64,000 nt of DNA from Jatrophihabitans sp. GAS493. GTDB lineage: Bacteria; Actinomycetota; Actinomycetes; Mycobacteriales; Jatrophihabitantaceae. How positions within the stretch are numbered: position 1 is the first letter of the stretch; each line of letters opens with the position of its first letter. The notes under the pieces were generated by a model, which was not told the DNA's origin, did not search any database, and saw only the letters and a list, made by a program, of their open reading frames with translations. Shown here piece by piece: positions 7,620 to 64,000 of this stretch. The position numbers and the translations under genes are program-made. The stretch spans positions 3,827,568 through 3,891,567 of the forward strand of contig NZ_LT907982.1 in assembly GCF_900230215.1 (NCBI RefSeq). Reading direction: 5' to 3'.

Positions 7620-7733
7620 GAAGAGCAGGCTAGAACAGATCGCAACTTACAGGGGAAAGTTATCCACAGGGTGGCGCCGGGTCGCCGCCGGGGCGTTGCG
7701 ACGCCGCCCCGCGGGGGTTTATAGGCTGACCCA

Positions 7734-11642: not shown

Positions 11643-11658
11643 GTTACATGTCGGAAAC
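11643..11658 (+). promoter_or_regulatory. Candidate GlnR box (gTnAc-n6-GaAAc) upstream of glnA1
   Basis: GTTAC-atgtcg-GAAAC at 11643-11658, ~75 nt upstream of glnA1 start; matches the actinobacterial GlnR a-site/b-site consensus. Confidence 0.4.
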
Positions 11659-11730
11659 ATTCGAGATACCCTGCGGCAATTCGTGCTCCTTAGCATTTGC
11701 GCCGTTACCCACCACGAGTCCGGAGGACGG

Positions 11731-13155: not shown

Positions 13156-13190
13156 GTTGTCCCGCAACTAGGCACAACTCACGGTTCACC

Positions 13191-25832: not shown

Positions 25833-25920
25833 CGAATCACTCCTGTCATGGCGAACGTAGCGCTGCCCGACGTGGCAGTTGCTGCCTATCTGAGTATTCC
25901 TACCCAGATAGGCAGCGGAC

Positions 25921-26311
25921 GAGTCGACCTATAAGCCGGGTCCTGTCCCGACGCGAACGCCGGGGGCGATCATCCATCTACGCCTACCGTCACCGGCAGG
26001 CTCTAGCGGTCTACCCGCAGACTCGGGCGAGCAGCCCTCGAACGCCTGCGCAAGCCAATGAAACATTGGCTCTTCTCGACCTTGCTCCGGGTGGGGTTTA
26101 CCTAGCCGCCGCAGTTGCCCACGACGCTGGTGGTCTCTTACACCGCCGTTTCACCCTTACCCACACGCGAACGCGTGGGCGGTCTCTTCTCTGTGGCACT
26201 TTCCCGCGGGTCGCCCCGGGTTGCCGTTAACAACCACCCTGCTCTGTGGAGCCCGGACTTTCCTCGGCGAAGTCGGTAAGGACTTCGACGCGATCGCCCG
26301 GTCGGCTCGTC
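25921..26311 (-). ncRNA. rnpB: RNase P RNA (bacterial type A)
   Basis: Minus strand contains universal P4 motif GAGGAAAGUCCGGGCUCCACAGAGCAGGGUG near the 5' end and ACAGGACCCGGCUUAU near the 3' end; terminal strands can form P1 (GAGCCGACC / GGUCGACUC). A 121-aa ORF (26138..26503) across it is spurious. Confidence 0.85.
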
Positions 26312-31211: not shown

Positions 31212-31285
31212 ACAGCCAGGCCACTCAGGCCGGCGTTCGGCCGCGACGGTTGCGAACAACCAGCGGCACTAAGGAGAAAGTCCAG

Positions 31286-47700: not shown

Positions 47701-50700
47701 CGCTCGAGGTCGAGTCGACGGTGACGTTGCCGTTGGCGTTGGCAACGACGCCCGTCGCGATCCAGGCCTGGGTGTCCTTGCTCAGCGTCTCGACGTCGAC
47801 GCCGGCTCCGATGCCGGCCGACCCACCCGCGGCCAGCGCACCGGCGATGCCGAGGATCGTCGTGGTGTCCGTGGCGGCCAGCGCGATGCCGTTGGTCGAG
47901 GAGGCGCCGCTGTTGTTGCCGTTGACGGTTACGCCGCTGTCCACGTGGGCGTGGGTCGAGTCGTCCAGGACGTCCACGGTGGCCGACCCGGCGACTCCCG
48001 CGTCACCACCCGCCGAGCCGCCGATGGCGAAGATCTTGATGCCCTCGTTCTGGCTGGCCCGGACCGACAGGCCGCTGTTGCCCTTGGCCTCGATGTCGCT
48101 GCCGGCGCCGACGTAGGCGTCGACGTAGCCGCTGCGGATGAGGATGGAGGAGGAGATCCCGACTCCGGCGCTGCCGCCGATGGTGACGTTGCCGGCGTAG
48201 AGGCCGAGGTCGGAGGCGTCGTCGGAGGCGGCCAAGGCCACGTTGCCACCGGCATGCACGATCGTCGACTGGCTACCGTTGCCCTCGATGTAGGCCCGCG
48301 TGCCTGGTGGCACATCCCCTTCACCGCTGCCCTGGTTCATCACCAGCACGATGAAGGAACCGGCCACCGCGGCTTCGGTGGAGGCGGCGGCGTCGACCGA
48401 GATCTCGGTGACCTTCTCCCCGGCCGTCGCACCGATGGCGATGTCGCCCCCAACCGTGACGTGCGCCCCCTGGCCGATGAAGGAGCGGACGTCCTTGTTG
48501 ATCACGTCGACGACCAGGCCGAGCCCGACCCCGACGTCACCGCCGGAGAGGGCGACCGCACCGGCGAGGTTCACCAGGGAGGTCTGGTCGCTGGAGGTGA
48601 TGGAGAGCGACTGCCCGGGCGTGGCCGGGCCGGCCTGGTTCACCAGCGCGGCGGCGGCGATGTAGGCCTGGGTCGCCAGGTTGATGACGTCCACGATCAC
48701 CGAGCCGCCGATGGCGACCCCACTGGTGCCGGCCGCGCCCGCGATGGCTACCGAGCTCACCGCCGGCGGGGTGATCTTCGGGATGTCGGGCACCAGCGGG
48801 CTGATCGACTGGGCCGCGTTGAGGCTCATCGCGCCACCGGCATCGATCCGGGTGACCGCCGTCGTCGAGGAGTCGATGTAGGTGCGGGTGCTGATGTCGA
48901 TGATGTTCACCGCGACCGCCGCGCCGACCCCGGCGTCGCCGCCGAGGGAGAGCGCCCCCGACGCGGCAATGTTCTGCAGGCCGAGCGGGGCGGTGGAGTT
49001 CATCGTCAGCGCGCCGGTGAGGGTGACGTGCGAGCCGCTGCCGATCGAGGCGGTGCTGTGGAAGGTGATCACCTGAACGCCGACGGAACCAGCGACGCTG
49101 GCGTCCCCGTCGCCTCCAGCCGCGGCGATCCCCCACACCACGAAGTCGTTCTCGGCCCGGTCGGGTGTCACCGCGCTGACGACCAGGCTGGAGCCGGTGA
49201 TGGTGGCGCCGGTGCCGATCGAACCGCTGTTGGTGACGCTGGCGACGTTGAGCCCGACTGCGGCGCCGATGTTCGTGCTGCCGAGCTTCAGCGCGATCCC
49301 CATCGCCTTGCCGGTCGCGTCGGTCTCGTTGGTGGCGGCGACGATGACCGCCCCGGTGCTGAGGATGGAGAGGCCGGGAGCGACCGAGGCCGTGTTGGAG
49401 TCGGTGACCCAGTTGACGCTCACCGCCGCGCCGACACCGACCCCGGAGCCGCTGTTGCCCGACTGCGAACTGGCCTGGCTGTTACCGGAGGCCACGTTGT
49501 CGCTGGCGGACGGGAGCGTCCCGGTCTGCCCGCTGGTGCTCGGGGTGTTGTTGACCTGGCTGCTGGCCTGCTGGTCGGAGTTGCTGCCACTGCCCTTCTG
49601 CGAACCCTGGGCGCTGGCTGTCACGTTGGCCGCGCCCGAGTCCTGCGTCGTCGCGGTGATCGCGACCGATGCGCCGCTGAGGTTGCGGGCGGTCGCAGCC
49701 AGGGTGGTGTCGGTGACGACGTTCACCGCGATGATCGCGCCGACGGCGACGCTGTCGCTGGCCGCCTTCGCGTCGCCGGTGATCGTGCTGGAGCCGGTGT
49801 GCGTGGCCCGGATCTGGATGTCGCCGGTCGCGGCGAGCAATCCGGTGCCGGGGGCGCCGAGCCGGGCCGTGGTGACGTTGGTGGTGATGTTGATACCGAC
49901 GGCCGGGCTGACCGCCACCGAGCTCCCGGCGGAGCCGGCGGTGACCTGGTTGACGACCGGCTCGGCGGAGGTCGCGAGCAGGGTGACGTTGCGGCCGCCG
50001 GTGAGGCTGGCGTTGTCCTCCACCTCGGCCCGGGTGATGTTTGTGGTGAGGACGTTGATGGCTACCGAGGCTCCGACGCCGACCTTCCCGCCGCCGCCGA
50101 TGCTGGCGTCGGCCTTGGCCTTGGCGCTGTCGGAGCGAAGGTTCTGCGCGACCAGCGAGATGTCGCCGGTGCCGGCGCCAACCGTGGCCGTCGTGGTGAC
50201 GAAGGCTTCGGTGCGGTCGGTGACCAGGTTCAGTGAGACGGCGCCGGCGACCCCGACGTCCTTCGATCCGGCGCCCGCGTCGGCCTCGACATCGAAGGTG
50301 TGCACCGTGTCGCCGTTGAGGTTGGTCATCGTCGACTCGGCGTCGAAGCCGTTGCTGGTGACCTTGCTGAGGCGTCCGATCGAGGCCTGGTTGGTGATGG
50401 TGACCAGGTTGATCGAGACGGCCGCACCGACACCGACGTCCTCGGCCTTCACCGCGGTGCCGTCGGACTTGACCGTCCCGTCGACGTTCTCCGACGTGCG
50501 CAGGCTGACCACGCCACCGGCGATGAGCGTGAGCGACGCGGGCAGGGTCGCGGTGGCGCTGACGTCGGCGATGTTGAGGGCGACCGCCGCGGCGACCGCG
50601 ATCTTGCCGTCGGAGGTGGAGGCCGATGGGGACGCGCTGGTGCCGGTGCCGCCGCCGCCGTTGGCCGTGTCGGTGTCGGTGGCGTTGCTCCGCTCGGTCG

Positions 50701-53700
50701 CCACCTGACTGTCGACCCCACCCGACGGTGCACCGCTGGAGGACTTGCCCGGGGCACCGCTGGCCGACGCGCTGGCGATGGCGGAGTCGACCGAGGAACC
50801 GAAGGCGGAGAAGGCGATCGCCCCACCGGCAGTGATGTTGCGTCCGGTGGTCGAAGTGACGCTGTGCTTGAGCAGGTTGAGAGCGAGACCGACCCCGATG
50901 GAGGCAGTGCTGCCACCGGTGGCCACCGCGCCGGCGGTGGTGGCGGCCCCGGCCGTCTGGCTGGCGTTGGCCGCGAAGGCACCGCTGAGGGCGATGGTGC
51001 CATTGCCCGGCAGCGTTCCGATGGAGGTGGTCGTGGTGACCGTGGAGAGCGTGACCGCGACCGCCGGCGTGATGTCGACCTTGCCTCCGGCAGCGCCCAT
51101 CTTCGCTTCGGTGGTGGCCAGATCTGCCGCCGTCGCCGTGAGCGTGAGGTTGCGGGCGCCGGTGAGCACGATCCCGTCATTGAGCTTGGACGAGGTGAGA
51201 TCGGTGATGAGGTTGAGCGCGACGCTGGCCCCGATGCCGACGCTGGTCGCGGTGACCCCGCCGACGGTCGGCTCGGCGGTGGCCCTCGAGACCGCGTTAC
51301 TGGCCGAGATGATTGAAGCGTCGCCGCCGGTCAGGGTGACGGTGCCGTCGATGAGGGCGGTGGTCGTCTGGTTGACGATGTTCAGGCCGAGCGCGCCGGC
51401 TACCGAGACCTTGCCACCGCCGGCACCGGCCACCGCGTCGGCGCCGTAGGTCGACTGGGTGTCCGGTGCGCCCTGCGGCCGGATGACGCTGGTCACGGTG
51501 GCGCTGACGGTGATGTCGTGGGCAGTGACGCTGTTGTTCCCGGTTGGCAGGGATGCGGTGTTGGTGACGTTGGCCAGGTTGATCGCCACCCCGGCACCGA
51601 TGGTGACGGTGGTGCCCTTGGTGGCTGAGCCGTCCGCACCGGCGGCGGCATCCGTGTTGGCCGAACTGGCCAAAGTGACCAGACCGCCAGAGGTCAGCAC
51701 GAGGTTGGTACCGACCAGAGTGGCCAGCGAACTCGTCGTCGCCAGGTTGACTCCGATCGCCGCGGCAACACTGACCTTCCCGCCGGAGGTCGACGCGGTC
51801 GGAGCGGTCGCCGGGCCCGACCCCTTGCCGCCGTTGGCCGTTGCAGTGGAGTCGGCATTGCTCCGCTCACTCGCGACCTGGTTATCGACACCGGAGCCCC
51901 CGCTGCCCCCACTTCCGCTGTTCTCCGGCGCACCCGCCGCCGACGCACTCGCGATCGCGTTACTGGCCGAACTCCCGAACGCGCTCAACGTCAAGTTCCC
52001 ACCGGCCTTGATCGACCTCGCCGTGGTCGCCGAGACCGCATGATTCGCAATAGTCAACGCCAGGCCAACACCGACCGCAGCCGTCGACGCACCGGTCGCC
52101 GTCGCCCCGGCACTGGTCAATGCACTTGCCGTCTGACTGGCATTGGCGGCGAAGGCACCGGTGAGCGTGAGTAGCGTCCCAGTAGCGATCGTCGCGGAGG
52201 TGGTGACGTTGGAGATCGTGATCGCGACCGCGGGAGTGATGTCGACCTTGCCCCCGGCTGCGCCCATCTTCGCTGCCGTAGTCGCCAGATCGGTAGCAGC
52301 GGCGGTGAGGGTGATGTTGCGGGCGCCGGAGATCGGGATGTTGTCGACGAGGGTCGCCGACGTGGTGTCGGTGATGAGGTCGAGGGCGACGCTGGCCCCG
52401 ATGCCGACGCTGGTCGCGGTAACCCCACTGACGGTCGGGAACGCGGTCACCGTCGAGGCGGCGCTGCTTCCCGCGGTCATCGTCGCGTCGCCGCCGAGCA
52501 GCGTCACCGGCGACGCCACCTGAGCGGTGGTCGTCTGGTTGACGATGTTCAGCGCCAGCGACCCGGCGACCGAGATCTTCCCGCCACCGGCACCCGCCAC
52601 CGACGCCGCGCCATACGTGGACTGGGTGTCGGTTCCGACCGTGGTCTCGGTCGCGCTCACCGTCAGATCATGGGCAGTCGCCGAGTTGCCGGCCGGGAGC
52701 AGAGCAGTGTTCGTCACGTTCGCGAGGTTGATCGCGACGCCGGCGCCGATGGTGACGGTGGTGCCCTTGGTGGCTGAACCGTCCGCGCCGGCGGCGGCGT
52801 CGGTGTTGGCCGACGATGCCAGAGTGAGAATGCCACCAGAGTTCAGAACGAGGTTGGTACCGATCAGAGTGGCCAGCGAACTGGTCGTCGCCAGGTTGAC
52901 TCCGATCGCCGCGGCAACACTGACCTTCCCGCCGGATGTCGACGCGCTCGGTGCAGTTGCCGGGCCCGACCCCTTGCCGCCGTTGGCCGTTGCCGTGGAG
53001 TCGGCGTTGGAGCGTTCGCTCGCGACCTGGTTGTCGACACCGGAGCCCCCGCTGCCGCCGCTGCCGCTGTTCTCCGGCGCACCCGCCGCCGAGGCGCTGG
53101 CGATCGCATTACTCGCCGAGGAACCGAATGCACCGAGCGTCAGGTTTCCACCGGCCTTGATCGACCTCGCCGTGGTCGCCGACACCGAATGATTCGCGAC
53201 CGTCAGAGCCAGACCCACCCCGACTGCCGCGGTCGACGCACCGGTCGCCGTCGCCCCGGCACTGGTCAGGGCGCTGGCCGTCTGCGTCGCGTTCGCCGCA
53301 AACGCGCCGGTGAGGATCAGGACGCCATTGCCCGTCAGCAAACCAAGCGATGCGGTTGTCGTGACGTTGGAGATCGTGATCGCTACCGCCGGGGTGATGT
53401 CGACCTTGCCGCCCGCGGCACCCATCTTGGCTGCCGTGCTGGCCAGGTCGATGGCGGTGGCCCCGAGCGTGACGTTCCGCGCTCCGGTGAGCGTCACGTT
53501 GTCGGGCAGGCTGGCCGAGGTGACGTCAGTGATCAGGTCGAGCGCCACGCTGGCCCCGATCCCGACGCTGGTCGCGGTAACCCCACCGACGGTCGGGAAC
53601 GCCGACACGGTCGAGGCGGCGCTGCTTGCCGCGGTGAGTGTGGCGTCGCCACCGGTGAGCGTGACCGGCCCGGCGACCAGCGCGGTCGTGGTCTGGTTGA

Positions 53701-56700: not shown

Positions 56701-59700
56701 CCGCGGTCGAGGCGCCAGTCGCCGTCGCACCCGCCGTCGTTGAGGAGGACGCGGTCTGCACCGCATTCGCCGCGAACGCACCGGTCAGCGTGAGCAGAGT
56801 TCCCGTGCCCACGGTGGCGCTCGTGGTCACGTTGCCGATCGTCACCGCGACCGCCGGAGTCAACGCGACACTGCCACCAGCCGCGCCCATCTTCGCCTCA
56901 GTGGTCGCTGAATCAGTCGCGGTCGCCGACAGGGTCACGTTCCGGGCACCAGTCAAGGCCACACCGTTGGGAATGGAGGCAGTGGTCGTATCGGTGATCA
57001 GGTTCAAACCAACCGATGCACCGATACCGACACTGGTCGACGTGACACCACCGGCGGTCGGGAACGCCGTCACAGTCGACGAAGCATTGCTGGCCGCGGT
57101 CACGACCGCATCGCCACCGGTCAGCGTCACTGTCGAACCGACCAGAGCCGACGTGGTCTGGTTGACGATGTTCAACGCCAACGATCCGGCGACCGAGATC
57201 TTCCCGCCACCCGCACCGGCCACCGAACCCGCACCATACGTCGACTGGGAGTCAGCGCCGACAGTTGTTTCCGTCGCGGAAACGGTCAGGCTCTTCGCCT
57301 TCACAGTGTCCCCGGCCGGAGCCACCGCAGAGTTAAGTACATTCGCCAGGTTGATCGCCACCCCGGCACCGATCGTCGCCGTCGTCCCACTGGTAGCCGA
57401 ACCGTCCGCCTTCGCCGACGCATCGGTGTTACCCGACGACGCCAACGTCACCAGACCACCAGAGGTAAGGATCACGTTGGCACCGAGAATCGTGGCCAGC
57501 GAAGAGGTCGTCGCCAGGTTGATCCCGACCGCCGCGGCGACCGACACCTTCCCACCCGACGTGGACGCACTCGGCGTCGTCCCGGTGCCAGATCCCTTGC
57601 CGCCGTTCGCGGTCGCCGTGGAATCAGCGTTGCTTCGCTCGGCCGCGACCTGATCATCAACACCAGAGCCAGACCCACCACCAGCACCGCTGTTCTCTGG
57701 AGCACCACCCGCCGAGGCACTCGCCGACGCTGACGAGCTCGACGAACCGAACGCGCTCAGAGTCAATGCGCCACCGGCAGTGATGCTGCGAGCGGTAGTC
57801 GCAGAAACCGAATCGTTCGCAATATTGAGCGCAACACCAACACCCACCGCGGCGGTCGAGGCGCCAGTCGCGGTCGCACCAGCGGCCGTTGAGGAGGACG
57901 CGGTCTGCACCGCATTCGCCGCGAACGCACCGGTCAGCGTGAGCAGAGTTCCCGTGCCCACGGTGGCGCTCGTCGTCACGTTGCCGATCGTCACCGCGAC
58001 GGCCGGCGTGAGGGCGACCTTCCCGCCGGCCGCGCCCATCTTCGCCTCAGTCGACGCCACATCCGTCGCGGTCGCCGACAACGTGACGTTGCGAGCACCA
58101 GTCAACGCAACTCCGTCGGCGATGCTGGCCGTGGTCGTATCGGTGATCAAGTTCAACCCAACCGAAGCCCCGACGCCGACGGTCGTCGACGTGACACCGC
58201 CGGCGGTCGGGAACGCCGTCACCGTCGACAACGCACTGCTGGCCGCCGTCACGATCACATCGCCACCGGTCAACGTCACCGTCGAACCGACCAGAGCCGA
58301 CGTGGTCTGATTGACGATGTTCAACGCCAACGATCCGGCGACCGAGATCTTCCCGCCACCAGCACCCGCGACCGACGCCGCGCCATAAGTCGACTGGGTG
58401 TCAGCGCCGACAGTTGTTTCCGTCGCGGAAACGGTCACGCTCTTCGCCTTCACAGTGTCCCCGGCCGGAGCCACAGCGGAGTTGAGTACATTCGCCAGGT
58501 TGATCGCCACCCCAGCACCGATCGTCGCCGTCGTCCCACTGGTAGCCGAACCATCCGCCTTCGCCGACGCATCCGTATTCGCCGACGACGCCAACGTCAC
58601 CAGCCCACCAGAGGTAAGGATCACGTTGGCGCCGAGAATCGTGGCCAGCGAGGTCGTGGTCGCCAGGTTGATCCCGACCGCCGCGGCGACCGACACCTTC
58701 CCACCCGACGTCGACGCCGACGGCGTAGCCGAAGTACCCGATCCCTTACCGCCGTTCGCGGTCGCCGTGGAATCAGCGTTCGACCGCTCCGCCGCGACCT
58801 GATCATCAACACCGGAACCAGACCCACCACCAGCACCACTGTTCTCCGGAGCACCACCCGCCGACGCGCTAGCCGAGGCTGCCGACCCCGACGAACCGAA
58901 AGCGCTCAGAGTCAGCGCGCCACCAGCGGTGATGCTGCGAGCGGTAGTCGCAGAAACCGCATCATTCGCAATATTCAGCGCAACACCAACACCAACCGCC
59001 GCAGTCGAGGCACCAGTCGCCGTCGCACCCGCCGTCGTCGACGACGACGCCGCCTGCACCGCATTCGCCGCGAACGCACCGGTCAGCGTGAGCAGAGTTC
59101 CGGTCCCGACTGTCGCGCTTGTGGTCACGTTGCCGATGGCGACCGCGACTGCGGGCGTCAACGCGACACTGCCACCAGCCGCACCCATCTTCGCCTCAGT
59201 CGACGCCACATCCGTCGCAATCGCACTCAACGTGACATTGCGAGCGCCGGTCAGCGCCACACCATTGGGAATGGATGCAGTGGTCGAGTCGGTGATCAAG
59301 TTCAAACCAACCGATGCACCGATACCGACACTGGTCGACGTGACCCCACCGGCGGTCGGGAACGCCGTCACCGTCGACGAAGCACTGCTGGCCGCGGTCA
59401 CGACCGCATCGCCACCGGTCAGCGCCACTGTCGAACCGACCAGAGCCGACGTCGTCTGGTTCACGATGTTCAGCGCCAGCGACCCGGCGACCGAGATCTT
59501 CCCGCCACCGGCACCCGCCACCGAACCCGCACCATACGTCGACTGGGAGTCAGCGCCGACAGTTGTCTCCGCCGCCGAGACCGTCAGACTCTTCGCCTTC
59601 ACAGTGTCCCCGGCCGGAGCCGCCGCGGAGTTGATGACGTTGGCCAGGTTGATCGCCACCCCGGCACCGATCGTCGCGGTAGTCCCGGAGGTGGCCGAAC

Positions 59701-62700
59701 CATCGGCCTTCGCCGACGCATCCGTGTTCGCCGAGCTAGCGAGCGTGACCAGCCCACCGGAAGTCATTACGAGGTTGGCACCGAGCAGGGTGGCCAGCGA
59801 GGTCGTGGTCGCCAGGTTGATGCCGACCGCGGCGGCAACACTGACCTTGCCCCCCGACGTCGACGCACTCGGCGTCGTCCCGGTGCCAGATCCCTTGCCA
59901 CCATTCGCCGTCGCCGTGGAATCGGCGTTGGACCGTTCCGCCGCGACCTGATTGTCAACGCCGGATCCCGAACCACCACCAGCACCGCTGTTCTCCGGAG
60001 CACCACCCGCCGACGCACTCGCCGACGCTGACGAGCTCGACGAACCGAAAGCGCTCAGAGTTAGCGCGCCACCAGCGGTGATGCTGCGAGCGGTAGTCGC
60101 AGAAACCGAGTCATTCGCAATATTCAGCGCAACACCAACACCCACCGCCGCGGTCGAGGCGCCAGTCGCCGTCGCACCCGCCGTCGTCGACGACGACGCG
60201 GTCTGCACCGCATTCGCCGCGAACGCACCCGTCACCAACAGCAACGCACCAGTGCCGACCGTCGCCTTAGTCGTCACGTTCCCGATCGTCACCGCGACCG
60301 CCGGCGTCAACGCGACACTGCCACCAGCCGCGCCCATCTTCGCCTCAGTCGACGCCGCATCCGTCGCAATCGCACTCAACGTGACATTGCGAGCGCCGGT
60401 CAGCGCCACACCGTTGGGAATGGATGCAGTGGTCGAGTCGGTGATCAGGTTCAAACCAACCGATGCACCGATACCGACACTGGTCGACGTGACACCACCG
60501 GCGGTCGGGAACGCAGTCACAGTCGACGAAGCACTGCTGGCCGCGGTCACGACCGCATCGCCACCGGTCAGCGCCGCTGTCGAACCGACCAGAGCCGACG
60601 TCGTCTGGTTCACGATGTTCAACGCCAACGAGCCGGCGACCGAGATCTTCCCGCCACCAGCACCGGCCACCGAACCCGCACCATAAGTCGACTGGGAGTC
60701 AGCGCCGACAGTTGTTTCCGTCGCGGAAACGGTCAGGCTCTTCGCCTTCACAGTGTCCCCGGCCGGAGCCACCGCAGAGTTAAGTACATTCGCCAGGTTG
60801 ATCGCCACCCCGGCACCGATCGTCGCCGTCGTCCCACTGGTAGCCGAACCGTCCGCCTTCGCCGACGCATCGGTGTTACCCGAAGACGCCAACGTCACCA
60901 GACCACCAGAGGTAAGGATCAGGTTGGCACCGAGAATCGTGGCCAGCGAAGAGGTCGTCGCCAGGTTGATCCCGACCGCCGCGGCGACCGACACCTTCCC
61001 ACCCGACGTGGACGCACTCGGCGTCGTCCCGGTGCCAGATCCCTTGCCGCCGTTCGCGGTCGCCGTGGAATCAGCGTTGCTTCGCTCGGCCGCGACCTGA
61101 TCATCAACACCAGAGCCAGACCCACCACCAGCACCGCTGTTCTCTGGAGCACCACCCGCCGAGGCACTCGCCGAAGCTGACGAGCTCGACGAACCGAACG
61201 CGCTCAGAGTCAATGCGCCACCGGCAGTGATGCTGCGAGCGGTAGTCGCAGAAACCGAATCGTTCGCAATATTGAGCGCAACACCAACACCCACCGCGGC
61301 GGTCGAGGCACCAGTCGCGGTCGCACCAGCGGCCGTTGAGGAGGACGCGGTCTGCACCGCATTCGCCGCGAACGCACCGGTCAGCGTGAGCAGAGTTCCC
61401 GTGCCCACGGTGGCGCTCGTCGTCACGTTGCCGATCGTCACCGCGACGGCCGGCGTGAGGGCGACCTTCCCGCCGGCCGCGCCCATCTTCGCCTCAGTCG
61501 ACGCCACATCCGTCGCGGTCGCCGACAACGTGACGTTGCGAGCACCAGTCAACGCAACTCCGTCGGCGATGCTGGCCGTGGTCGTATCGGTGATCAAGTT
61601 CAACCCAACCGAAGCCCCGACGCCGACGGTCGTCGACGTGACACCGCCGGCGGTCGGGAACGCCGTCACCGTCGACAACGCACTGCTGGCCGCCGTCACG
61701 ATCACATCGCCACCGGTCAACGTCACCGTCGAACCGACCAGAGCCGACGTGGTCTGATTGACGATGTTCAACGCCAACGATCCGGCGACCGAGATCTTCC
61801 CGCCACCAGCACCCGCGACCGACGCCGCGCCATAAGTCGACTGGGTGTCAGCGCCGACAGTTGTTTCCGTCGCGGAAACGGTCACGCTCTTCGCCTTCAC
61901 AGTGTCCCCGGCCGGAGCCACAGCGGAGTTGAGTACATTCGCCAGGTTGATCGCCACCCCAGCACCGATCGTCGCCGTCGTCCCACTGGTAGCCGAACCA
62001 TCCGCCTTCGCCGACGCATCCGTATTCGCCGACGACGCCAACGTCACCAGCCCACCAGAGGTAAGGATCACGTTGGCGCCGAGAATCGTGGCCAGCGAGG
62101 TCGTGGTCGCCAGGTTGATCCCGACCGCCGCGGCGACCGACACCTTCCCACCCGACGTCGACGCCGACGGCGTAGCCGAAGTACCCGATCCCTTACCGCC
62201 GTTCGCGGTCGCCGTGGAATCAGCGTTCGACCGCTCCGCCGCGACCTGATCATCAACACCGGAACCAGACCCACCACCAGCACCACTGTTCTCCGGAGCA
62301 CCACCCGCCGACGCGCTAGCCGAGGCTGCCGACCCCGACGAACCGAAAGCGCTCAGAGTCAGCGCGCCACCAGCGGTGATGCTGCGAGCGGTAGTCGCAG
62401 AAACCGCATCATTCGCAATATTCAGCGCAACACCAACACCAACCGCCGCAGTCGAGGCACCAGTCGCCGTCGCACCCGCCGTCGTCGACGACGACGCCGC
62501 CTGCACCGCATTCGCCGCGAACGCACCCGACACCAACAGCAACGCACCAGTACCAACCGTCGCCGAAGTACTGATGTTGCCGATCGTCACCGCGACCGCA
62601 GGAGTGATGGCAACCTTGCCGCCAGCCGCGCCCATCATGGCGACCGTGGTGGCGAGATCCGCACTCACCGCGGAGAGCGTCACGGCGCCGGCTCCGGTCA

Positions 62701-64000
62701 GGGTCGCCGCGTTACCGAGCGCCGCGACCGTGGTGTCGGTGATCAGGTTGAGCGCAACTGAGGCACCGAAGCCGAGGCTGCCGGTGGTCGTCGTCCCGCC
62801 GCCGGTCGGTAGTGCCCGGGCCGTGGCCATCGCGGTCGAGCCGGCGGTGATGGAGATGCTGCCTGCCGCCGTCACCGTCGCCGCTCCGTCGACCCGTGCT
62901 GCGGTCGTCAGGTTGACGATGTTCAGCGCCAGCGACCCCGCGACCGACACTCCCCCGCCACCGGCCCCAGAGGAGGCCAGCGCACCGAACATGTGACCGC
63001 CGGCCACCGGCTGTGGGCTGACACCCGGAGTGAGGGTCGCCGAGACGATGAGCCCGGCGGCCGAGCTGACCGAGTCACCAGCCGGCAACACGGCGGTGTT
63101 GGTGACATTGGCCAGGTTGATCGCGACGCCGGCGCCGATACCGAGCGACGCAGCGCCGGTCGCCGACCCGTCGGCCACGGCGCCGGCGGTCGTTCCGGCG
63201 CTGGATGCCAGCGTGATCACCCCGGCCGCACTGAGCGAGAGACCGGTACCGACGAGTGTCGCCGAGGAACTTGTCGTGGCCAGCGTGATCCCGATAGCGG
63301 CGGCGACCGAGACCTTCCCCTTCGAGGTTGAAGCTGAGGGCGTCGCCGTCGATCCTGTCCCACCTCCGGTTGGTGCGAAGGCGTCGGCCACGCTTCGGTC
63401 GCCGGCCACCTGACCGTCCACCCCTCCGGCCGGCGCGCCCGCTGAGCCGTCACCGGGGGCGCCTCCGGCCGAGGCGGTGGCCGACGAGATGTCAGTCGAG
63501 GAGCCGATCGCGATGAGCGCCAACGCGCCACCCGATTTGATCGACCGGGCGGCGGAGGCGAGGACGGAGTGATGAGCGAAGGTCAATGCCGTGGAGACTC
63601 CGGCCGACGCGCTGCCGGCCTGGGCCGCACCGGTCGCGGTCGTCGTCACGCTCGCCGTCTGCGTTGCCTTGGCGGCGAATGCCCCGCCGAGGGTCAGCGT
63701 GCTCGCGGCCGGCCCTCCGACACTCGTGCTCGTCGTGACGTTGGAGGTGCTGATCGCGACTACGGGTGCGAGGGCCACATCCGCGGAACTTGCGCCATTC
63801 GTGGCCTGGGTAGTCATGGCGTCGGCCGCGGTGGCCGTCAGGGTGACGCCCCGGGAGCCGATCAGCACAGCGCCGTCGCCGATTGAAGCGGCTGTTGTGT
63901 CGTTGATGATGCCGAGTGCGAAGGAGGCGCCGATGCCGGTCTCGGCGGTGCCGGGGCCGCTGTCGGCCGAGAGCGCCGAAGTCATGGTGGTCGCCGCCGA
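32675..64000 (-). CDS. Giant (>10,436 aa; N-terminus outside window) cell-wall-anchored repetitive surface protein / fibrillar adhesin with LAXTG sorting signal
   Basis: Single uninterrupted minus-strand reading frame of 31.3 kb while all other frames are fragmented; still open at window edge (..SAATT-MTSAL..). Composition A/G/T/S/V-rich with GxGxAxNxxN-type solenoid repeats, Big_1 and Ig-like domains, C-terminal LAATG-hydrophobic-RRQRRGRLD. Confidence 0.85.
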   Translation of the reverse strand, partial: SAATTMTSALSADSGPGTAETGIGASFALGIINDTTAASIGDGAVLIGSRGVTLTATAADAMTTQATNGASSADVALAPVVAISTSNVTTSTSVGGPAASTLTLGGAFAAKATQTASVTTTATGAAQAGSASAGVSTALTFAHHSVLASAARSIKSGGALALIAIGSSTDISSATASAGGAPGDGSAGAPAGGVDGQVAGDRSVADAFAPTGGGTGSTATPSASTSKGKVSVAAAIGITLATTSSSATLVGTGLSLSAAGVITLASSAGTTAGAVADGSATGAASLGIGAGVAINLANVTNTAVLPAGDSVSSAAGLIVSATLTPGVSPQPVAGGHMFGALASSGAGGGGVSVAGSLALNIVNLTTAARVDGAATVTAAGSISITAGSTAMATARALPTGGGTTTTGSLGFGASVALNLITDTTVAALGNAATLTGAGAVTLSAVSADLATTVAMMGAAGGKVAITPAVAVTIGNISTSATVGTGALLLVSGAFAANAVQAASSSTTAGATATGASTAAVGVGVALNIANDAVSATTARSITAGGALTLSAFGSSGSAASASASAGGAPENSGAGGGSGSGVDDQVAAERSNADSTATANGGKGSGTSATPSASTSGGKVSVAAAVGINLATTTSLATILGANVILTSGGLVTLASSANTDASAKADGSATSGTTATIGAGVAINLANVLNSAVAPAGDTVKAKSVTVSATETTVGADTQSTYGAASVAGAGGGKISVAGSLALNIVNQTTSALVGSTVTLTGGDVIVTAASSALSTVTAFPTAGGVTSTTVGVGASVGLNLITDTTTASIADGVALTGARNVTLSATATDVASTEAKMGAAGGKVALTPAVAVTIGNVTTSATVGTGTLLTLTGAFAANAVQTASSSTAAGATATGASTAAVGVGVALNIANDSVSATTARSITAGGALTLSAFGSSSSSASASASAGGAPENSGAGGGSGSGVDDQVAAERSNADSTATANGGKGSGTGTTPSASTSGGKVSVAAAVGINLATTSSLATILGANLILTSGGLVTLASSGNTDASAKADGSATSGTTATIGAGVAINLANVLNSAVAPAGDTVKAKSLTVSATETTVGADSQSTYGAGSVAGAGGGKISVAGSLALNIVNQTTSALVGSTAALTGGDAVVTAASSASSTVTAFPTAGGVTSTSVGIGASVGLNLITDSTTASIPNGVALTGARNVTLSAIATDAASTEAKMGAAGGSVALTPAVAVTIGNVTTKATVGTGALLLVTGAFAANAVQTASSSTTAGATATGASTAAVGVGVALNIANDSVSATTARSITAGGALTLSAFGSSSSSASASASAGGAPENSGAGGGSGSGVDNQVAAERSNADSTATANGGKGSGTGTTPSASTSGGKVSVAAAVGINLATTTSLATLLGANLVMTSGGLVTLASSANTDASAKADGSATSGTTATIGAGVAINLANVINSAAAPAGDTVKAKSLTVSAAETTVGADSQSTYGAGSVAGAGGGKISVAGSLALNIVNQTTSALVGSTVALTGGDAVVTAASSASSTVTAFPTAGGVTSTSVGIGASVGLNLITDSTTASIPNGVALTGARNVTLSAIATDVASTEAKMGAAGGSVALTPAVAVAIGNVTTSATVGTGTLLTLTGAFAANAVQAASSSTTAGATATGASTAAVGVGVALNIANDAVSATTARSITAGGALTLSAFGSSGSAASASASAGGAPENSGAGGGSGSGVDDQVAAERSNADSTATANGGKGSGTSATPSASTSGGKVSVAAAVGINLATTTSLATILGANVILTSGGLVTLASSANTDASAKADGSATSGTTATIGAGVAINLANVLNSAVAPAGDTVKAKSVTVSATETTVGADTQSTYGAASVAGAGGGKISVAGSLALNIVNQTTSALVGSTVTLTGGDVIVTAASSALSTVTAFPTAGGVTSTTVGVGASVGLNLITDTTTASIADGVALTGARNVTLSATATDVASTEAKMGAAGGKVALTPAVAVTIGNVTTSATVGTGTLLTLTGAFAANAVQTASSSTAAGATATGASTAAVGVGVALNIANDSVSATTARSITAGGALTLSAFGSSSSSASASASAGGAPENSGAGGGSGSGVDDQVAAERSNADSTATANGGKGSGTGTTPSASTSGGKVSVAAAVGINLATTSSLATILGANVILTSGGLVTLASSGNTDASAKADGSATSGTTATIGAGVAINLANVLNSAVAPAGDTVKAKSLTVSATETTVGADSQSTYGAGSVAGAGGGKISVAGSLALNIVNQTTSALVGSTVTLTGGDAVVTAASNASSTVTAFPTAGGVTSTSVGIGASVGLNLITDTTTASIPNGVALTGARNVTLSATATDSATTEAKMGAAGGSVALTPAVAVTIGNVTTSATVGTGTLLTLTGAFAANAVQTASSSTTAGATATGASTAAVGVGVALNIANDSVAATTARSITAGGALTLSAFGSSSSSASASASAGGAPENSGAGGGSGSGVDNQVAAERSNADSTATANGGKGSGTGTTPSASTSGGKVSVAAAVGINLATTTSLATLLGANLVMTSGGLVTLASSANTDASAKADGSATSGTTATIGAGVAINLANVTNTASLPVGNNKVFAHDLTVSATETTVGTDTQSTYGAASVAGAGGGKISVAGSLALNIVNQTTTALVAGPVTLTGGDATLTAASSAASTVTAFPTAGGVTSTSVGIGASVGLNLITDVTTASLPDNVTLTGARNVTLGATAIDLASTAAKMGAAGGKVALTPAVAITISNVTTTASVGLLTGNGVLLLTGAFAANATQTAGALTSAGATATSASTAAVGVGLALTVANHSVSATTARSINAGGNLTLGAFGSSASNAIASASAGGAPENSGSGGSGGSGVDNQVASERSNADSTATANGGKGSGTATTPSASTSGGKVSVAAAIGVNLATTSSLATLIGTNLVLTSGGLVTFASSANTDAAAGADGSATSGTTATIGAGVAINLANVTNIASLPAGNNAVKAHDLTVRATETTIGTDTQSTYGAASVAGAGGGKISVAGSLALNIVNQTTTALVASPVTLLGGDATLTAASSAASTVTAFPTVGGVTATSVGIGASVALSLITDTTSATLVDNIPITGARNITLSASATDLATNAAKMGAAGGKVALTPAVAVTISNVTTKATVGTGALLTLTGAFAANASQTAGALTSAGATATGASTAAVGVGLALTIANHAVSATTARSITAGGNLTLSAFGSSASNAIASASAAGAPENSGSGGSGGSGVDDQVAGERSNADSTATANGGKGSGTATAPSASTSGGKVSVAAAIGVNLATTSSLATLVGTGLTLTAGALVTFASSANTDAAAGADGSATSGTTATIGAGVAINLANVTNTASLPVGNNKVFAHDLTVSATETTVGTDTQSTYGAASVAGAGGGKISVAGSLALNIVNQTTTALVAGPVTLTGGDATLTAASSAASTVSAFPTVGGVTATSVGIGASVALDLITDVTSASLPDNVTLTGARNVTLGATAIDLASTAAKMGAAGGKVDITPAVAITISNVTTTASLGLLTGNGVLILTGAFAANATQTASALTSAGATATGASTAAVGVGLALTVANHSVSATTARSIKAGGNLTLGAFGSSASNAIASASAAGAPENSGSGGSGGSGVDNQVASERSNADSTATANGGKGSGPATAPSASTSGGKVSVAAAIGVNLATTSSLATLIGTNLVLNSGGILTLASSANTDAAAGADGSATKGTTVTIGAGVAINLANVTNTALLPAGNSATAHDLTVSATETTVGTDTQSTYGAASVAGAGGGKISVAGSLALNIVNQTTTAQVASPVTLLGGDATMTAGSSAASTVTAFPTVSGVTATSVGIGASVALDLITDTTSATLVDNIPISGARNITLTAAATDLATTAAKMGAAGGKVDITPAVAITISNVTTSATIATGTLLTLTGAFAANASQTASALTSAGATATGASTAAVGVGLALTIANHAVSATTARSIKAGGNLTLSAFGSSASNAIASASAAGAPENSGSGGSGGSGVDNQVASERSNADSTATANGGKGSGPATAPTASTSGGKVSVAAAIGVNLATTSSLATLVGTNLVLTSGGLVTLASSANTDAAAGADGSATKGTTVTIGAGVAINLANVTNTASLPTGNNSVTAHDITVSATVTSVIRPQGAPDTQSTYGADAVAGAGGGKVSVAGALGLNIVNQTTTALIDGTVTLTGGDASIISASNAVSRATAEPTVGGVTATSVGIGASVALNLITDLTSSKLNDGIVLTGARNLTLTATAADLATTEAKMGAAGGKVDITPAVAVTLSTVTTTTSIGTLPGNGTIALSGAFAANASQTAGAATTAGAVATGGSTASIGVGLALNLLKHSVTSTTGRNITAGGAIAFSAFGSSVDSAIASASASGAPGKSSSGAPSGGVDSQVATERSNATDTDTANGGGGTGTSASPSASTSDGKIAVAAAVALNIADVSATATLPASLTLIAGGVVSLRTSENVDGTVKSDGTAVKAEDVGVGAAVSINLVTITNQASIGRLSKVTSNGFDAESTMTNLNGDTVHTFDVEADAGAGSKDVGVAGAVSLNLVTDRTEAFVTTTATVGAGTGDISLVAQNLRSDSAKAKADASIGGGGKVGVGASVAINVLTTNITRAEVEDNASLTGGRNVTLLATSAEPVVNQVTAGSAGSSVAVSPAVGINITTNVTTARLGAPGTGLLAATGDIQIRATHTGSSTITGDAKAASDSVAVGAIIAVNVVTDTTLAATARNLSGASVAITATTQDSGAANVTASAQGSQKGSGSNSDQQASSQVNNTPSTSGQTGTLPSASDNVASGNSQASSQSGNSGSGVGVGAAVSVNWVTDSNTASVAPGLSILSTGAVIVAATNETDATGKAMGIALKLGSTNIGAAVGLNVASVTNSGSIGTGATITGSSLVVSAVTPDRAENDFVVWGIAAAGGDGDASVAGSVGVQVITFHSTASIGSGSHVTLTGALTMNSTAPLGLQNIAASGALSLGGDAGVGAAVAVNIIDISTRTYIDSSTTAVTRIDAGGAMSLNAAQSISPLVPDIPKITPPAVSSVAIAGAAGTSGVAIGGSVIVDVINLATQAYIAAAALVNQAGPATPGQSLSITSSDQTSLVNLAGAVALSGGDVGVGLGLVVDVINKDVRSFIGQGAHVTVGGDIAIGATAGEKVTEISVDAAASTEAAVAGSFIVLVMNQGSGEGDVPPGTRAYIEGNGSQSTIVHAGGNVALAASDDASDLGLYAGNVTIGGSAGVGISSSILIRSGYVDAYVGAGSDIEAKGNSGLSVRASQNEGIKIFAIGGSAGGDAGVAGSATVDVLDDSTHAHVDSGVTVNGNNSGASSTNGIALAATDTTTILGIAGALAAGGSAGIGAGVDVETLSKDTQAWIATGVVANANGNVTVDSTSSEKVTSVSASVSLGGSVAVSVNAAVSVFTIVTKAFIGGLCEAGTPAACAGFRSTINTHGSARVSANEQLTLAVVAGNLSVSGSAAVGAAGAVPIVNKTTTAFIGDDSTVNALATNDASLTVATGTHDEQYTDIRFAPTTAVESDHRTLNLGYLHGFTEGQQVIYDNGGGQNIIGLTGGTPYYVHVISPTEVQLSATSGGPAITLTAPARGGESQRLVATNSAVTPQNSSPYFTPSLDVVGNSINLPYDMTLNTGDAVVYGSGSEAPIGGLVDGHTYYAIVTGAHTIQLAATKCQATGTCSGIAQQAITLNAAAAGAGRSHSIVPSGSTPSGNAAQVTGIHTVLNGSRSGFRGIAVTASNSDDISGVGISGAISAGASVSVGGSVNVVTSNTDAFIGKFATINAANSGASTSQSVLVAAGNDYHQLMVSGVLAVGLYAGVAPSASVGLIHLNTNAYIGAQSTVNAAQDIVVNASAKDSIVSVALAGGGGIAGIAGAVSVISLNTHTYADTGFGDTITAGNNLLVAARDDTKVIMVAGGVAGGIVGIGAGVGVTLATKDTQAFISAGSTVDALATQPGVTLAAIYAGQLNGNNFVTAPFNGLAVQAGSSEDIFGLTLGLAGGFVGVAGGIGITLLHATTIAFIDSNAQAPTLVNTKAGAGAAQSVNVSAADFTKTLTIAGALAGGAVGIAGGVDVGVVDTTTKAYLGLYATVHARNNVGVYALAAKDIASYAVSVGGGFVGAAGSVSVWTIGTQPNPNYSNGPGPSTNGLSSNGDPQGEADTQATGSGGFQGILSGTSGSSTSRSNTLIKNHTADATSSIQSNAPTAGQISGGVTNPGLPEGTVAAISQGVTIVAGGSVAVAALENFGFAGLAGSAAGGFVGIGLSLVIANVDSHADASIGSNASISAGGDVAVIASTNETSSGLAFGGQAGAVAVGGQIAVINDHSDQNAHIDDNATIPQAGGSVTVAAIGNRSVTPSAIGGQIGAIAVGAAVAVASIDGNTTATIGNVSIGSASPVGAVNVSANSTISAPAIAYSIGVGAVGVGAGVAITTIEGTTAASFGGHGPVAGSVSVTAGGTNTVSAFVLNVKAGGFAAGLTIATATENRTTAASFTTFANIAAGGAVTVGATSQNHATATTPGGTAGGITIGALLPTATVNGSTTATVDGQITASGSITVSAAGQNQADAEATIISISVGGLSGVDADAEVTSQAAIRATVNKSSTIASTGLVSVNAASTPDAAGNADYARTRIFSGAGGGISIGVFIAQAIVAAAVTAQLNGNVSNSGSVKVSAGGGNRADGQTKSFALGAFGVSVSGIQALIAGSAVTDATILGGTVTSSGAVAVSATSHNTATADTDTAGVGIISAGGTIPIATIAGRTHAEFGDVLKSQGLSVAATATNNATATSEIIEVGFIVGGYAGSDAEITSAAAVDALVDDSSTTVNAGAGTVSVTATSTNRATATPSQVAVGGYTLSALTPTAKVGAHTNAAFNGGVTTSGAFLVGANGQNVAIATAKVASFHLAGGSGVIVDAEILARADVTASVASSATITAAGAVTVQAVLTADGSGHQNFASASAESASGGLIDAGVYIGTATVAGAVTATLNGAVTASTGITVKAAGANDAEASTKSVGIGLFTISVAGVAASVTADAAVSAQIGSRSISSSGAIGVFANSGNTANASTDAANIGLISGSVSIPTATVAAATLASSGAPIGSAGSFTVSAGGNNSASATSAIVAIGLITGGGAGADAEVLSSASVTAAVTATATTVHVSGAISVTATSTDHATATPSQLAAGAINLVALLPTAKVAAPTSASYSGGTTSSGDFTVSASGQNTAVATVDVKNFGIVGITGVSVDAEVLASAGVSATVAASTALTSTGTVLVSATLTPDGAGHQNYAAAKVSSTSGGLITGGIFFAKAQVGAAVAAQLNGAVLASHQATVKAAGANTVEGTTLSIGIGLGSISGSAVDAEVLNGANVSATTGGGALASSGLVNVLANGTNTATALSDSVNGGFIAGSASIPIGRTAGAFTAEFDGRLSGATGLIVKAVGASTASATSGAQGGGFISAHDSSPTATVDAASVTSAVIGAGALLNAPSAAISVIANATNSATASGGSVNGGLATVDVSNPAANDFGITRAKMLGSAHGATNAAPGAGSISVQASGSDASTALISDTSVAGVGVSNAGATATTTTTVEADLASSGSVITTVGDISLGAASSPVATSASRSTSAGILLNIVGNNSTINNTPTVNVNIAPNAQIYSGGSITVTAQQNTTAPPPSGNTGFFDASTGVNTGTNTITFTAPHGLLTGNTVTYTNAGNPNVGGLTNNAQYNVFVVNANSVRLGSTFGGANIDPATSTISFGRMVGPTFVPLNHNLHEGDLVIYEVPSGGSAIPGLTPGGLYRVHVVDDSHIQLFDPNSSTAVINLTGANVSGNTINATNPFGNGTPVTYTAPTPIAVFSSALVSINVDGSNNPIYPVQNNSDNRILIHNHGLATGTAVVYDGGTGPIGGLTNGVTYYVININANQIQLADSLCHATGTCVDGDNNPIPQQALPLTPDKSAAGAAIKQGLYAPGQQPIGGLADGGRYYVVNATGTSFQLASTPNGSPLTLDGTGRVGASTIKLAPVAIGVGTGDQNLIVDLTATSSGTQQLAPVGITGPAAGGGVLSTATVTGSGGGFINSTHANTNATETVNVNVEVGANTSLTTVGSITITTNSSTGVSANSSNGGGGLISVGSAQAKATATGNTTVKLDSGTNLTAGDSVKIAPLNFVQAISSANASGGGLGAGVSAYSKSTDNYTTLTDIAGSITAGNNINIEAHSAVNGNISTSAEGGGLGVDAHAGDDGDATNNLDVTGTTTVHLESGTHLTADNVQLTAQTDSITAHNNGHTHASALGAASDAEATITANTGQQVQIDGATKIVGYETVGIAANALNLSFAANTDAHCSCFGGDTNTTENITYNSDSDVTANATAIIRTGHLDVEVVQNVTNWNTDHDNDGAVFDGGGNHGSSHNNAQRTIHWNADVYLHTPDPQLIVDSSGKIVKLYGITVKDDLGNSYDLGDTIPSGRIIEVQDIVNNGGATALFNASVSQTEGGSTAPASLIDGSQGKFVQQNTFDFVKIYNYSSRALTTHIINVVNLNNPGATVTVQLNQIPFTFHVGPPIFTPTAVDIENFAGSVADSDVTIDGLIYNPIGSTVVNNGRGNIFAGPDSPLIETNTLVLEAPAGSIGILFNLFGISIRIPIPVLLVQSDYIVDNVDPTRFISLVAEALGNVVLDITSILRANQTPFAPTLGPIHAGGNIDIVVNDSAWGNDAPQWPSEAIQVNLHNPPDLVTNLPGTGLYRVFFRPDQPFVDNDPVLMVFGNVLTPIDSTYNFTDLSAGNNINVRHVATGTQVTFVAHTNVDATLFALGNPALQLSQSDQVGEIDLFTNGRITDTETVSDLRVGTITSTNNDVVLIAADDPASIFDVAATDDGVARVTGNNITLLALHGGIGFVTPTVNYLEIHSSNAAVGALLALANSGIFIEQTQGNLNVALADSLTSDIALVTDAGSILDNHSASGASIVARSIDLIAHGGSIGTYTSDASGDVRINSSSSATGRLYAYADGFGGDVIGAVALPGGGIYLTETDGALNVLRAQSVHGDVRLRVPFATGRTDADLTLLGSGSTLDGSVVLALGLIAAASGEVRLLVGNDVETAVSSLIFAATVWIYGEYLEPVTGPAVGSTMHFRGIVVGHPTNIFGGRGDDNFYFDQTLLGGQTNVYGATPNTGNCPPTNVSTNCGLSPDGNDFFQVDRLQTMTGKHVDTSGDQYSGQLVRDSLMLNGELGDNTYVVNTWGSDAAATHDYRIDVLNTGPLGGRNTLTVNGADGPDVFLMRGSSFIPDQPQAQSPAFVALLHGTYTDVLGRKRQDVERINYDEHINSRLTVNGLGGDDFFAMDDNSAITTINGGDGNDTFDVGQLYYLPRVAPYVLPEDQFATTQTNIGFLSRGNRFPTTIYGGAGNDTFLVYSNKAELRLEAGTGNDLFTFITSALIDPTTGRPMVDTFATNLLPLPVRIAVPVYNIDAPVSVDGGTGASQLYVLAVGDAHDILTTPTGVFGQGLNISYQNLHQPGGGPFVIAASTLLTGLSSLLTPIISGVLATGGSTGQITIGTVAEANTPTVVPVTVIDQGSGSIIITETGGSTAVTTNGATDSYTVRLATPPKATVYVNISAAFATGTPFAQVSIDGGLTWSDNVVLVFAAGETGPKTVLVRAITGAVTAPGATVETISHSSQSGDDRYNHVSIRNVYVNLLGASQPGVIITQPDGGVSVLAGTPPQGITGSYTVVLAAAPAAGTTVTIALGFDPTTLTVTSADARFDAATQSITFDSTNWFLPVTITVAATLAPPPPTQPTGGTANPALVLDPNGKNVITHTVTSTDPAYQAYAKALKTPLRVVVNLLTVKSGLIVSPPALVVTAGDQVGSQLTLRLSAAPTGPVTYRINTGGRFVIYDPCSCDGRFVAAGGDNLAAVTFDATNWFTPVVLNVVALAPASSTADPFQPIATIAPSSANRYGPILNPADNAAVDALFCVNVRTGRAALNVASAPGVACGLTPARVPVVLPNELGGGAPAHITAQAGTPQSTLVGTAFGAPITALVTDSYGNPEPGVTVVFTAPVGPRGLTVPTATFGNATAVETEVTGLDGLATSSILTASTKSGTYSVVGVISGAGAVSPTVSSAVFALTNLAGAAVTVVATTGTFQIALVGRPFRLPLTATALDQYGNPVPGAQVLFTAPATAPSGTFPGGAITLLVVTDASGNAVASGFIAGLSTGSYYVIATLVPPVVLVAPTPPVVGGGVLTPPVDSTGSSSFLLVNASLPKILLQPKAVSVRAGQVVTFRATAGGFPGPTYVWQKSKDGGRTWISGADPSGDALLTFVATKGENGYLYRVVFTNGAGSVFSLPVKLTVISPTTHFAVEALTITPPKARPSAKTENTGALAATGVSARQSTGLALLLLVLGAGLLVASRRQRRGRLD
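32678..32791 (-). other. C-terminal cell-wall sorting signal: LAATG motif + hydrophobic segment + positively charged tail
   Basis: Last 38 aa: LAATGVSARQSTGLALLLLVLGAGLLVASRRQRRGRLD, the tripartite architecture of sortase substrates; LAXTG is the class E sortase motif. Confidence 0.7.
57472..59080. repeat. Copy A of a perfectly duplicated ~1.6-kb segment (3447-bp higher-order repeat = 3 basic units)
   Basis: Plus-strand ORFs 57780..58310, 58398..58802, minus ORFs 57472..57720, 58621..58857 are amino-acid identical to those at +3447. Confidence 0.8.
60919..62530. repeat. Copy B of the perfectly duplicated ~1.6-kb segment
   Basis: ORFs 61227..61757, 61845..62249, 60919..61167, 62068..62304 identical to copy A. 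Confidence 0.8.

Follow-up and report, generated by a model that had tools for sequence, protein, structure and literature searches.

The stretch analysed here, hereafter the window, comprises 64,000 nt of the genome of the soil actinobacterium Jatrophihabitans sp. GAS493 (assembly GCF_900230215.1, contig NZ_LT907982.1, positions 3,827,568 to 3,891,567) and contains a giant gene carrying a long array of tandem coding repeats. The repeats are on the minus strand, all within a single open reading frame (ORF) at 32675..63985 (10,436 aa). Upstream of the ATG at 63985, five further in-frame codons lead to base 64000 without a stop, and the giant ORF (32675..64000, stop codon 32675-32677) is still open at the window end. 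This frame begins without a signal peptide, and its first residues can already be aligned with the latter half of a repeat unit. Since there is no stop and no signal peptide, and since the window edge falls in the middle of a unit, the gene continues past the window, as the first-pass annotation of this DNA had suspected, and its true N-terminus certainly lies beyond base 64000. The ATG at 63985 was rejected as the true start for the same reasons. The repeat region represents the N-proximal half of the giant gene, whose product within the window has at least 10,436 aa and approximately 991 kDa. The GC content of the gene is similar to that of its flanks. The array is composed of Ala, Thr, Gly and Ser for 63%, contains neither Cys nor Trp, and has a pI of 4.7. 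Long plus-strand ORFs opposite the giant gene across 32-64 kb (up to 1,135 aa, e.g., 32864-36271) were rejected as shadow ORFs, which are expected because the DNA has 86% GC at third codon positions.

A self-comparison of the 32-64 kb region showed that shared 14-mers peak at offsets of 3447 nt (2,376), 1149 nt (1,667) and 2298 nt (1,068), confirming the periodicity of about 1.15 kb noticed at first reading. Tandem Repeats Finder was silent on the array because its longest period is 500, below 1,149. Units were delimited by BLASTP and by a hidden Markov model (HMM) of the units, and it turned out that the array is made of a half unit (U0), 12 full units of 383-392 aa (U1-U12, 49604-63460) and a divergent unit U13, all read on the minus strand. 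U0 (63461..63985) covers HMM positions 211-383, the latter half of a unit, with 49% identity to the reference unit, and it aligns best with unit one or two at the edge of related arrays. U1 (aa 176-562, 62300..63460) presents 67-68% aa identity to the core units. The array core (56555..62299) comprises five units, all exactly 1,149 nt long, i.e., U2 (61151-62299), U3 (60002-61150), U4 (58853-60001), U5 (57704-58852) and U6 (56555-57703). They are followed by U7 (55394-56554), U8 (54242-55393), U9 (53081-54241) and U10 (51932-53080), of 383-387 aa (51932..56554 together), then by U11 (aa 4019-4410, 50756..51931), with 70-78% aa identity to other units, and by the edge unit U12 (aa 4411-4794, 49604..50755), with 38-41% identity to other window units. 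U13 (aa 4795-5202, 48380..49603) is a divergent but full-length unit with positional orthologues in relatives. Beyond it, degenerate LktA-type beta-helix repeats (38786..48379, aa ~5203-8400, about 3,200 aa) show 22-30% identity to the unit. The initial count of about 12 repeats in 50700-64000 was a fair one, as this interval contains 11 full units and one half unit, and its left border coincides with the drop of identity from 70% (U11) to 41% (U12). As U0 already corresponds to the start of related arrays, no more than one or two additional units, themselves divergent, are expected beyond base 64000.

The units had first been described as near-identical with only a few substitutions. This holds for the proteins of U2-U6 (92-100% aa, 85-99.8% nt) and is overstated for U7-U10 (76-84% aa and 70-80% nt identity to U2-U6) and for U1 and U11 (67-71% aa, 62-69% nt); the 70% identity proposed as a lower limit for such a reading is touched at these array edges, not in the core. 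At the DNA level, only U2/U5 (99.8%) and U3/U6 (94.5%) stand apart, the other unit pairs being 62-90% identical, and nucleotide identity is consistently below protein identity across the pairs. For most of them the synonymous divergence (dS, Nei-Gojobori) is 0.33-1.1, with a ratio of nonsynonymous to synonymous divergence (dN/dS) of 0.11-0.25, as compared with a dS of 0.006 for U2/U5. Most units are thus old copies that are held alike by purifying selection on the protein.

A single recent event in the array is a 2.9-kb duplication, whose copies at 59598..62547 (copy A) and 56151..59100 (copy B), both on the minus strand, are offset by 3,447 nt (3 units) and are 99-100% identical over most of their length, with stretches of 1.8 kb at 100% identity. 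A low-identity patch at 56600-57050 in copy B is explained by mosaic conversion. Also, U7/U9 and U8/U10 are each 91% identical at the aa level, with k-mer offsets of 2310/2313, and mark an older duplication of two units. Sliding windows along U3 and U6 gave 98-100% identity over nt 1-700, then 78-82%; U6 matches U2 and U5 at 95-98% at nt 851-950, and U3 matches U4 at 96-97% over about nt 500-850. This mosaic identity among U2-U6 indicates conversion or recombination tracts.

A unit profile was built from 413 units of 58 genomes. It shows an internal period of 56 aa, with multiples at 110-116 and 164-172, and an 18-20-aa period was absent from it. Based on this period and on the motif positions, each unit contains six sub-repeats, so that the six sub-repeats of about 60 aa seen at first reading are recovered at 56 aa each, preceded by a 58-aa linker. 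The linker peptide singled out at that time occurs 10 times. The linker motifs GVDxQVxxxRxxAD and TPSASTSxG rank with the best-conserved columns over the 413 units, including those of Proteobacteria and Chloroflexi; in U3 they lie at 60998-61108 on the minus strand (unit positions 14-51), and GVDxQVxxxRxxAD has a predicted helix of moderate confidence. The NCBIfam model NF012206 (LktA_tand_53), whose curated cutoff is 50 bits, matched aa 1-4794 of the array with 100.1 bits over 23 stretches and aa 4411-8400 with 68.6 bits over 8 stretches, and a lone unit with 33.9 bits. The array is thus a member of this family of filamentous proteins with tandem 53-aa repeats. No Pfam-A family was found for the array even at E<=10, nor for a single unit or the degenerate region, and a sequence search of the PDB with the unit profile gave no match.

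An AlphaFold2 model of U3+U4 (766 aa, alignment of 40 sequences) reached a mean predicted local distance difference test score (pLDDT) of 84 and a predicted TM-score of 0.84. In this model each unit starts with a short linker helix (pLDDT 52-70) and flanking disordered Gly/Ser stretches and is then all-beta, with a predicted fold of right-handed parallel beta-helix. The closest structural matches are the TpsA adhesins EtpA and HMW1, and also HxuA, which agrees with the beta-solenoid, hemagglutinin-like rungs proposed from the sub-repeat pattern. Per 56 aa, the strand pattern consists of two beta runs of 20-22 residues and one short run, and the model thus suggests two, possibly three, coils per sub-repeat. 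A beta-helix has a standard rise of 0.48 nm per coil. From the coil count and this rise, each unit would add roughly 6-9 nm to the rod, whose helical part would reach about 100-200 nm in all.

The non-repeat C-terminal region (32792..38785, minus strand) carries GGxGxD-like motifs, a weak Big_1 match at 33578-33823 and another weak match to an Ig-like domain at 32924-33148; the last 2,036 aa of the protein are without repeats. Five homologues of aa 8401-9600 were found, one of them in Humibacter under the NCBI name "beta strand repeat-containing protein". The AlphaFold2 model of aa 8601-9600 was poor (pLDDT 55.6, 5 sequences) and was not used for a fold search. The C-terminal end (32678..32791, minus strand) presents a cell-wall sorting signal with LAATG at 32777-32791, a hydrophobic segment GLALLLLVLGAGLLVA and the tail SRRQRRGRLD, the protein ending in ...TGALAATGVSARQSTGLALLLLVLGAGLLVASRRQRRGRLD*. 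The model NF058583 (LAXTG) matched the C-terminus weakly. LAXTG is the motif of class E sortases (PMC5148588), and the association of this motif with a hydrophobic segment and a basic tail characterizes the C-terminus as a putative class E sortase substrate, so that the protein is probably anchored by sortase E. These three elements also support the surface fibre postulated in the first-pass annotation.

A genome scan detected 58 loci with homologous 383-aa tandem units (cited below as L001 and so on). GAS493 itself is not among them, and the best match is 69% identical. Most of these loci are in Microbacteriaceae (Leifsonia, 69%; Humibacter, 66%; Rathayibacter; many Microbacterium), and the others are in Sinomonas, Gaiellaceae, Limnocylindria, a few Proteobacteria and one planctomycete. 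In most of the 58, the entire 21 kb is one open frame of 10-14 full units of about 380 aa. An exhaustive profile search returned 2,250 representative clusters at E<=1e-3 and 531 at E<=1e-30, with many proteins of 5,000-7,900 aa. The only match from a metagenome-assembled genome of Frankiales (L012) is 51% identical, as compared with 69% for Leifsonia and 66% for Humibacter (L002-L007). The giant gene may have been transferred horizontally between actinobacterial orders. On the metagenome contig L001 (ERZ25039524:contig_22272), the homologous gene is spread over at least 6 consecutive same-strand ORFs (412+, 2776, 573, 116, 422 and 1824 aa), a split likely due to frameshift errors, and short fragments dominate the protein-database matches to the family because of such splitting. 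We found no paper on this protein family in the literature; a preprint on giant genes notes only the richness of actinobacteria in such genes.

The N-termini of the homologues differ by lineage. The Variovorax homologue (L053) has N-terminal ESPR and two-partner secretion (TPS) domains, and two further proteobacterial homologues are TPS-like by eye. The TPS domain (PF05860) had no match in the actinobacterial relatives with complete N-termini (L035, L045), and the N-termini of L035, L045, L048 and L050 combine a basic stretch with a hydrophobic segment downstream of it. In Microbacterium, this basic-hydrophobic signal is followed by a long Pro-rich linker. In Sinomonas (L045, L048, L051), a signal peptide precedes a matrixin-like zinc-protease motif of HExxH type, HEFGHVLGL (Peptidase_M10, 25.6 bits), and long low-complexity linkers rich in Pro, Ala and Thr separate this domain from the beta-helix. 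As the N-termini differ in this way, the stalk module is common to type Vb secretion in diderms and to sortase anchoring in monoderms.

Neighbouring units in the centre of an array are 85-97% identical in every genome, and this value falls to about 35% towards the edges. The core units of the window have their best match inside the window (91-100% aa) and reach at most 70% identity to any foreign unit. U12, on the other hand, is 74-75% identical to the unit that closes the array in each of L002, L004, L006 and L009 (including Leifsonia). U12 and U13 both have counterparts of equal position in L002, L004, L006, L009 and L005, with 68-75% identity, and are little related to other window units. 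Homogenised centres with orthologous, diverged edges indicate that these arrays probably evolve in concert, by unequal exchange and conversion in the centre, with the edge units escaping. The original proposal of recent expansion or concerted evolution is thus supported, given the core units, the orthologous U12 and the mosaic tracts, although "recent" applies to the 2.9-kb duplication only. The arrays with both edges in the locus contain 10, 12, 12, 13, 13 and 14 units, and four others contain at least 13.5-14.5. The array of the window holds at least 12.5 units and probably totals 13-14. These counts compare species and genera, with one genome per species; copy number does vary between species, within a narrow band, and the variable repeat number that had been anticipated for strains is found (10 to at least 14.5) at the level of species and genera. 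Overall, the interpretation first put forward is largely supported.

Taken together, we consider with a probability of about 0.75 that the product of the giant gene is a wall-anchored, beta-helical surface fibre of roughly 1 MDa, whose array evolves by unequal recombination and conversion. The LktA-type sub-repeat (53-56 aa) would form two or three coils of a right-handed beta-helix. Sub-repeats and linker would build the 383-aa unit, at least 13 units would build the array, and the array would be followed by degenerate repeats of this type (about 3,600 aa), the non-repeat Ig-like base (2,000 aa) and the LAATG signal. The protein would be exported by the Sec pathway, its N-terminus being outside the window, and a class E sortase would join its C-terminus covalently to the peptidoglycan. 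The N-terminal end would be projected at the tip of a rod about 100-200 nm long, with a part in adhesion, aggregation or spacing that resembles the one of fibrillar adhesins and TpsA exoproteins; the adhesive role suggested here draws on this analogy. The centre of the array would be homogenised and change its copy number through unequal recombination and gene conversion, while the edges would diverge and stay orthologous, the latest event in the GAS493 array being the 2.9-kb duplication at a 3-unit offset. Meanwhile, purifying selection would hold the unit proteins alike as synonymous sites drift.

Several points weigh against this interpretation. The window contains neither the N-terminus, presumed to be the functional tip, nor the signal peptide, no sortase was recognised among those window ORFs that were scanned, and no member of the family has been functionally characterised. 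The linker is modelled with only moderate confidence (pLDDT 40-70), so that the rod may not be continuous between units. Also, homogenisation must be slow, given the high dS of most unit pairs, and the units could alternatively have diverged after lineage-specific duplications, without conversion. The 2.9-kb duplicate, being 99-100% identical, might in theory stem from an assembly error.

Giant repetitive beta-helical surface proteins are of an already known kind, of which this member is uncharacterised. The exoproteins of TpsA or filamentous haemagglutinin (FHA) type (FhaB, HMW1, EtpA, HxuA, CdrA, and LktA of Fusobacterium) have the beta-helical passenger in common with the window protein. 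However, the host of the latter is a monoderm actinomycete, a C-terminal LAATG sortase anchor replaces TPS/TpsB secretion, and its actinobacterial relatives have plain signal or transmembrane N-termini with no TPS domain. The window protein exceeds FHA three- to fivefold in length, its repeats are grouped in a conserved 383-aa super-unit with a helix-containing linker, and none of the haemagglutinin and beta-helix repeat families of Pfam (e.g., Fil_haemagg_2) matches it. No TpsB transporter gene was found among the window ORFs scanned, and the envelope of the host is not diderm. Since the TpsB partner, the diderm envelope and, in the actinobacterial relatives, the TPS domain are absent and a sortase anchor is present, the window protein is probably not a TpsA. 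As compared with fibrillar adhesins and giant wall proteins of Gram-positive bacteria (Ebh; the SRRP of Lactobacillus reuteri, PDB 5nxk), the beta-helix is here the stalk itself, in a protein of about 8,400 aa of helical sequence, whereas in the SRRP of L. reuteri the beta-solenoid is a single binding domain; no adhesive domain was identified in the window protein.

Another parallel is given by the Periscope Proteins (SasG, Rib, Sgo_0707 SHIRT, CdrA), which also have a wall-anchored stalk of long repeats, intragenic recombination and a copy number that differs between related genomes (PMC8201768). It is conceivable, though we hold it rather doubtful, that the array of GAS493 serves chiefly for rapid variation of stalk length, between strains or within a population, by recombination of its repeats. 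The difference in unit number among related genomes (10 to at least 14.5) and the succession of wall anchor, stalk and distal end would agree with such a length switch, CdrA provides a precedent with a beta-helix (PMC8201768), and the 99-100% identical 2.9-kb duplicate is a ready substrate for the gain or loss of three units. Nevertheless, Periscope Proteins are defined by highly identical repeats driving fast variation (PMC8201768) and are built of small globular domains, not of 383-aa beta-helix segments. Apart from U2/U5 and U3/U6, the units of the window are only 62-90% identical at the DNA level, with a dS of 0.3-1.1, which is well under the Periscope level (PMC8201768), and the 10-15 units retained across several genera look more like a constrained length.

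A further and equally tentative proposal concerns the unit rather than the fibre. The 383-aa unit might be an ancient, undescribed super-module of LktA type, with an invariant GVDxQVxxxRxxAD/TPSASTSxG insert having a function of its own, which moved horizontally between the TPS proteins of diderms and the sortase-anchored proteins of monoderms. The insert may then act as a hinge, as a clamp between units, as a metal or ligand site, or as a modification site.

Somewhat less probable still is a fibre that is not mainly an adhesin, in which the beta-helix would be a scaffold, either as a surface layer or spacer (sheath, capsule-like coat, protective brush) or as the carrier of an N-terminal enzyme or toxin. 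Against this, the closest structural matches of the model are adhesins (EtpA, HMW1, HxuA), and a single, covalently anchored chain of 1 MDa is typical of fibrillar adhesins (PMC9210967, PMC8286594). Finally, it is very improbable that mis-assembly of a shorter array has produced the near-identical stretch or the copy number seen here: stretches of 1.8 kb at 100% identity are prone to duplication or collapse by assemblers, and the L001 homologue is broken into several ORFs on its metagenome contig, but the frame of GAS493 is open over 31 kb in a source record that is a single 4.88-Mb contig, the near-identical part covers only 2.9 of 14 kb, the other units being individually distinct, and more than 50 independent genomes show the same array size and centre-to-edge gradient.

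Three of the proteins encoded next to the giant gene have exact matches in Jatrophihabitans sp. GAS493. The genes around the giant gene are core housekeeping genes of actinobacteria, namely pepA, lpdA, sucB, lipB/lipA, glnA1, glnE, glnA2, nadE and panB, together with RNase P RNA, an RNase H-phosphatase fusion, a zinc-ribbon protein, NIF3 and an SPFH protein. The genes glnA1 (11683-13155, plus strand), glnE (14221-17571, minus strand) and glnA2 (18294-19652, minus strand) present the classical actinobacterial arrangement; a 507-aa ORF opposite glnA1 (11644-13167, minus strand) has no Pfam match and is probably a shadow ORF. The RNase P RNA (25916-26309, minus strand) is complete and of bacterial class A (308 bits, E 5e-100). 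The fusion of RNase H with a CobC-like histidine phosphatase (27183-28481, minus strand), followed by a CT398-like zinc-ribbon protein and NIF3, constitutes a conserved actinobacterial trio. The SPFH/flotillin gene, as listed at 31250-32716 on the plus strand, is convergent with the giant gene and overlaps its 3' end (32675, minus strand) by about 42 nt; its database version starts 12 codons later (476 aa). The closest homologue of this SPFH protein (P0202) is found in an unrelated genomic context.

For the strain GAS493, a single gene occupying roughly 0.6% of a 4.9-Mb genome encodes a protein of about 1 MDa. The family to which it belongs comprises more than 2,000 clusters without any Pfam model, under the generic annotation "beta strand repeat-containing protein" only, and such genes are routinely split or missed, which should be regarded as a warning for annotation. 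In actinobacteria, a beta-helix of FHA/LktA type is thus used with a sortase anchor and, if the unit is indeed an ancient super-module, it would establish a branch of the filamentous-haemagglutinin world in Gram-positive bacteria. With more than 50 genomes, this family also constitutes a clear natural series for the evolution of long coding repeat arrays, in which the effects of conversion, of purifying selection and of duplicating two or three units at a time can be told apart.

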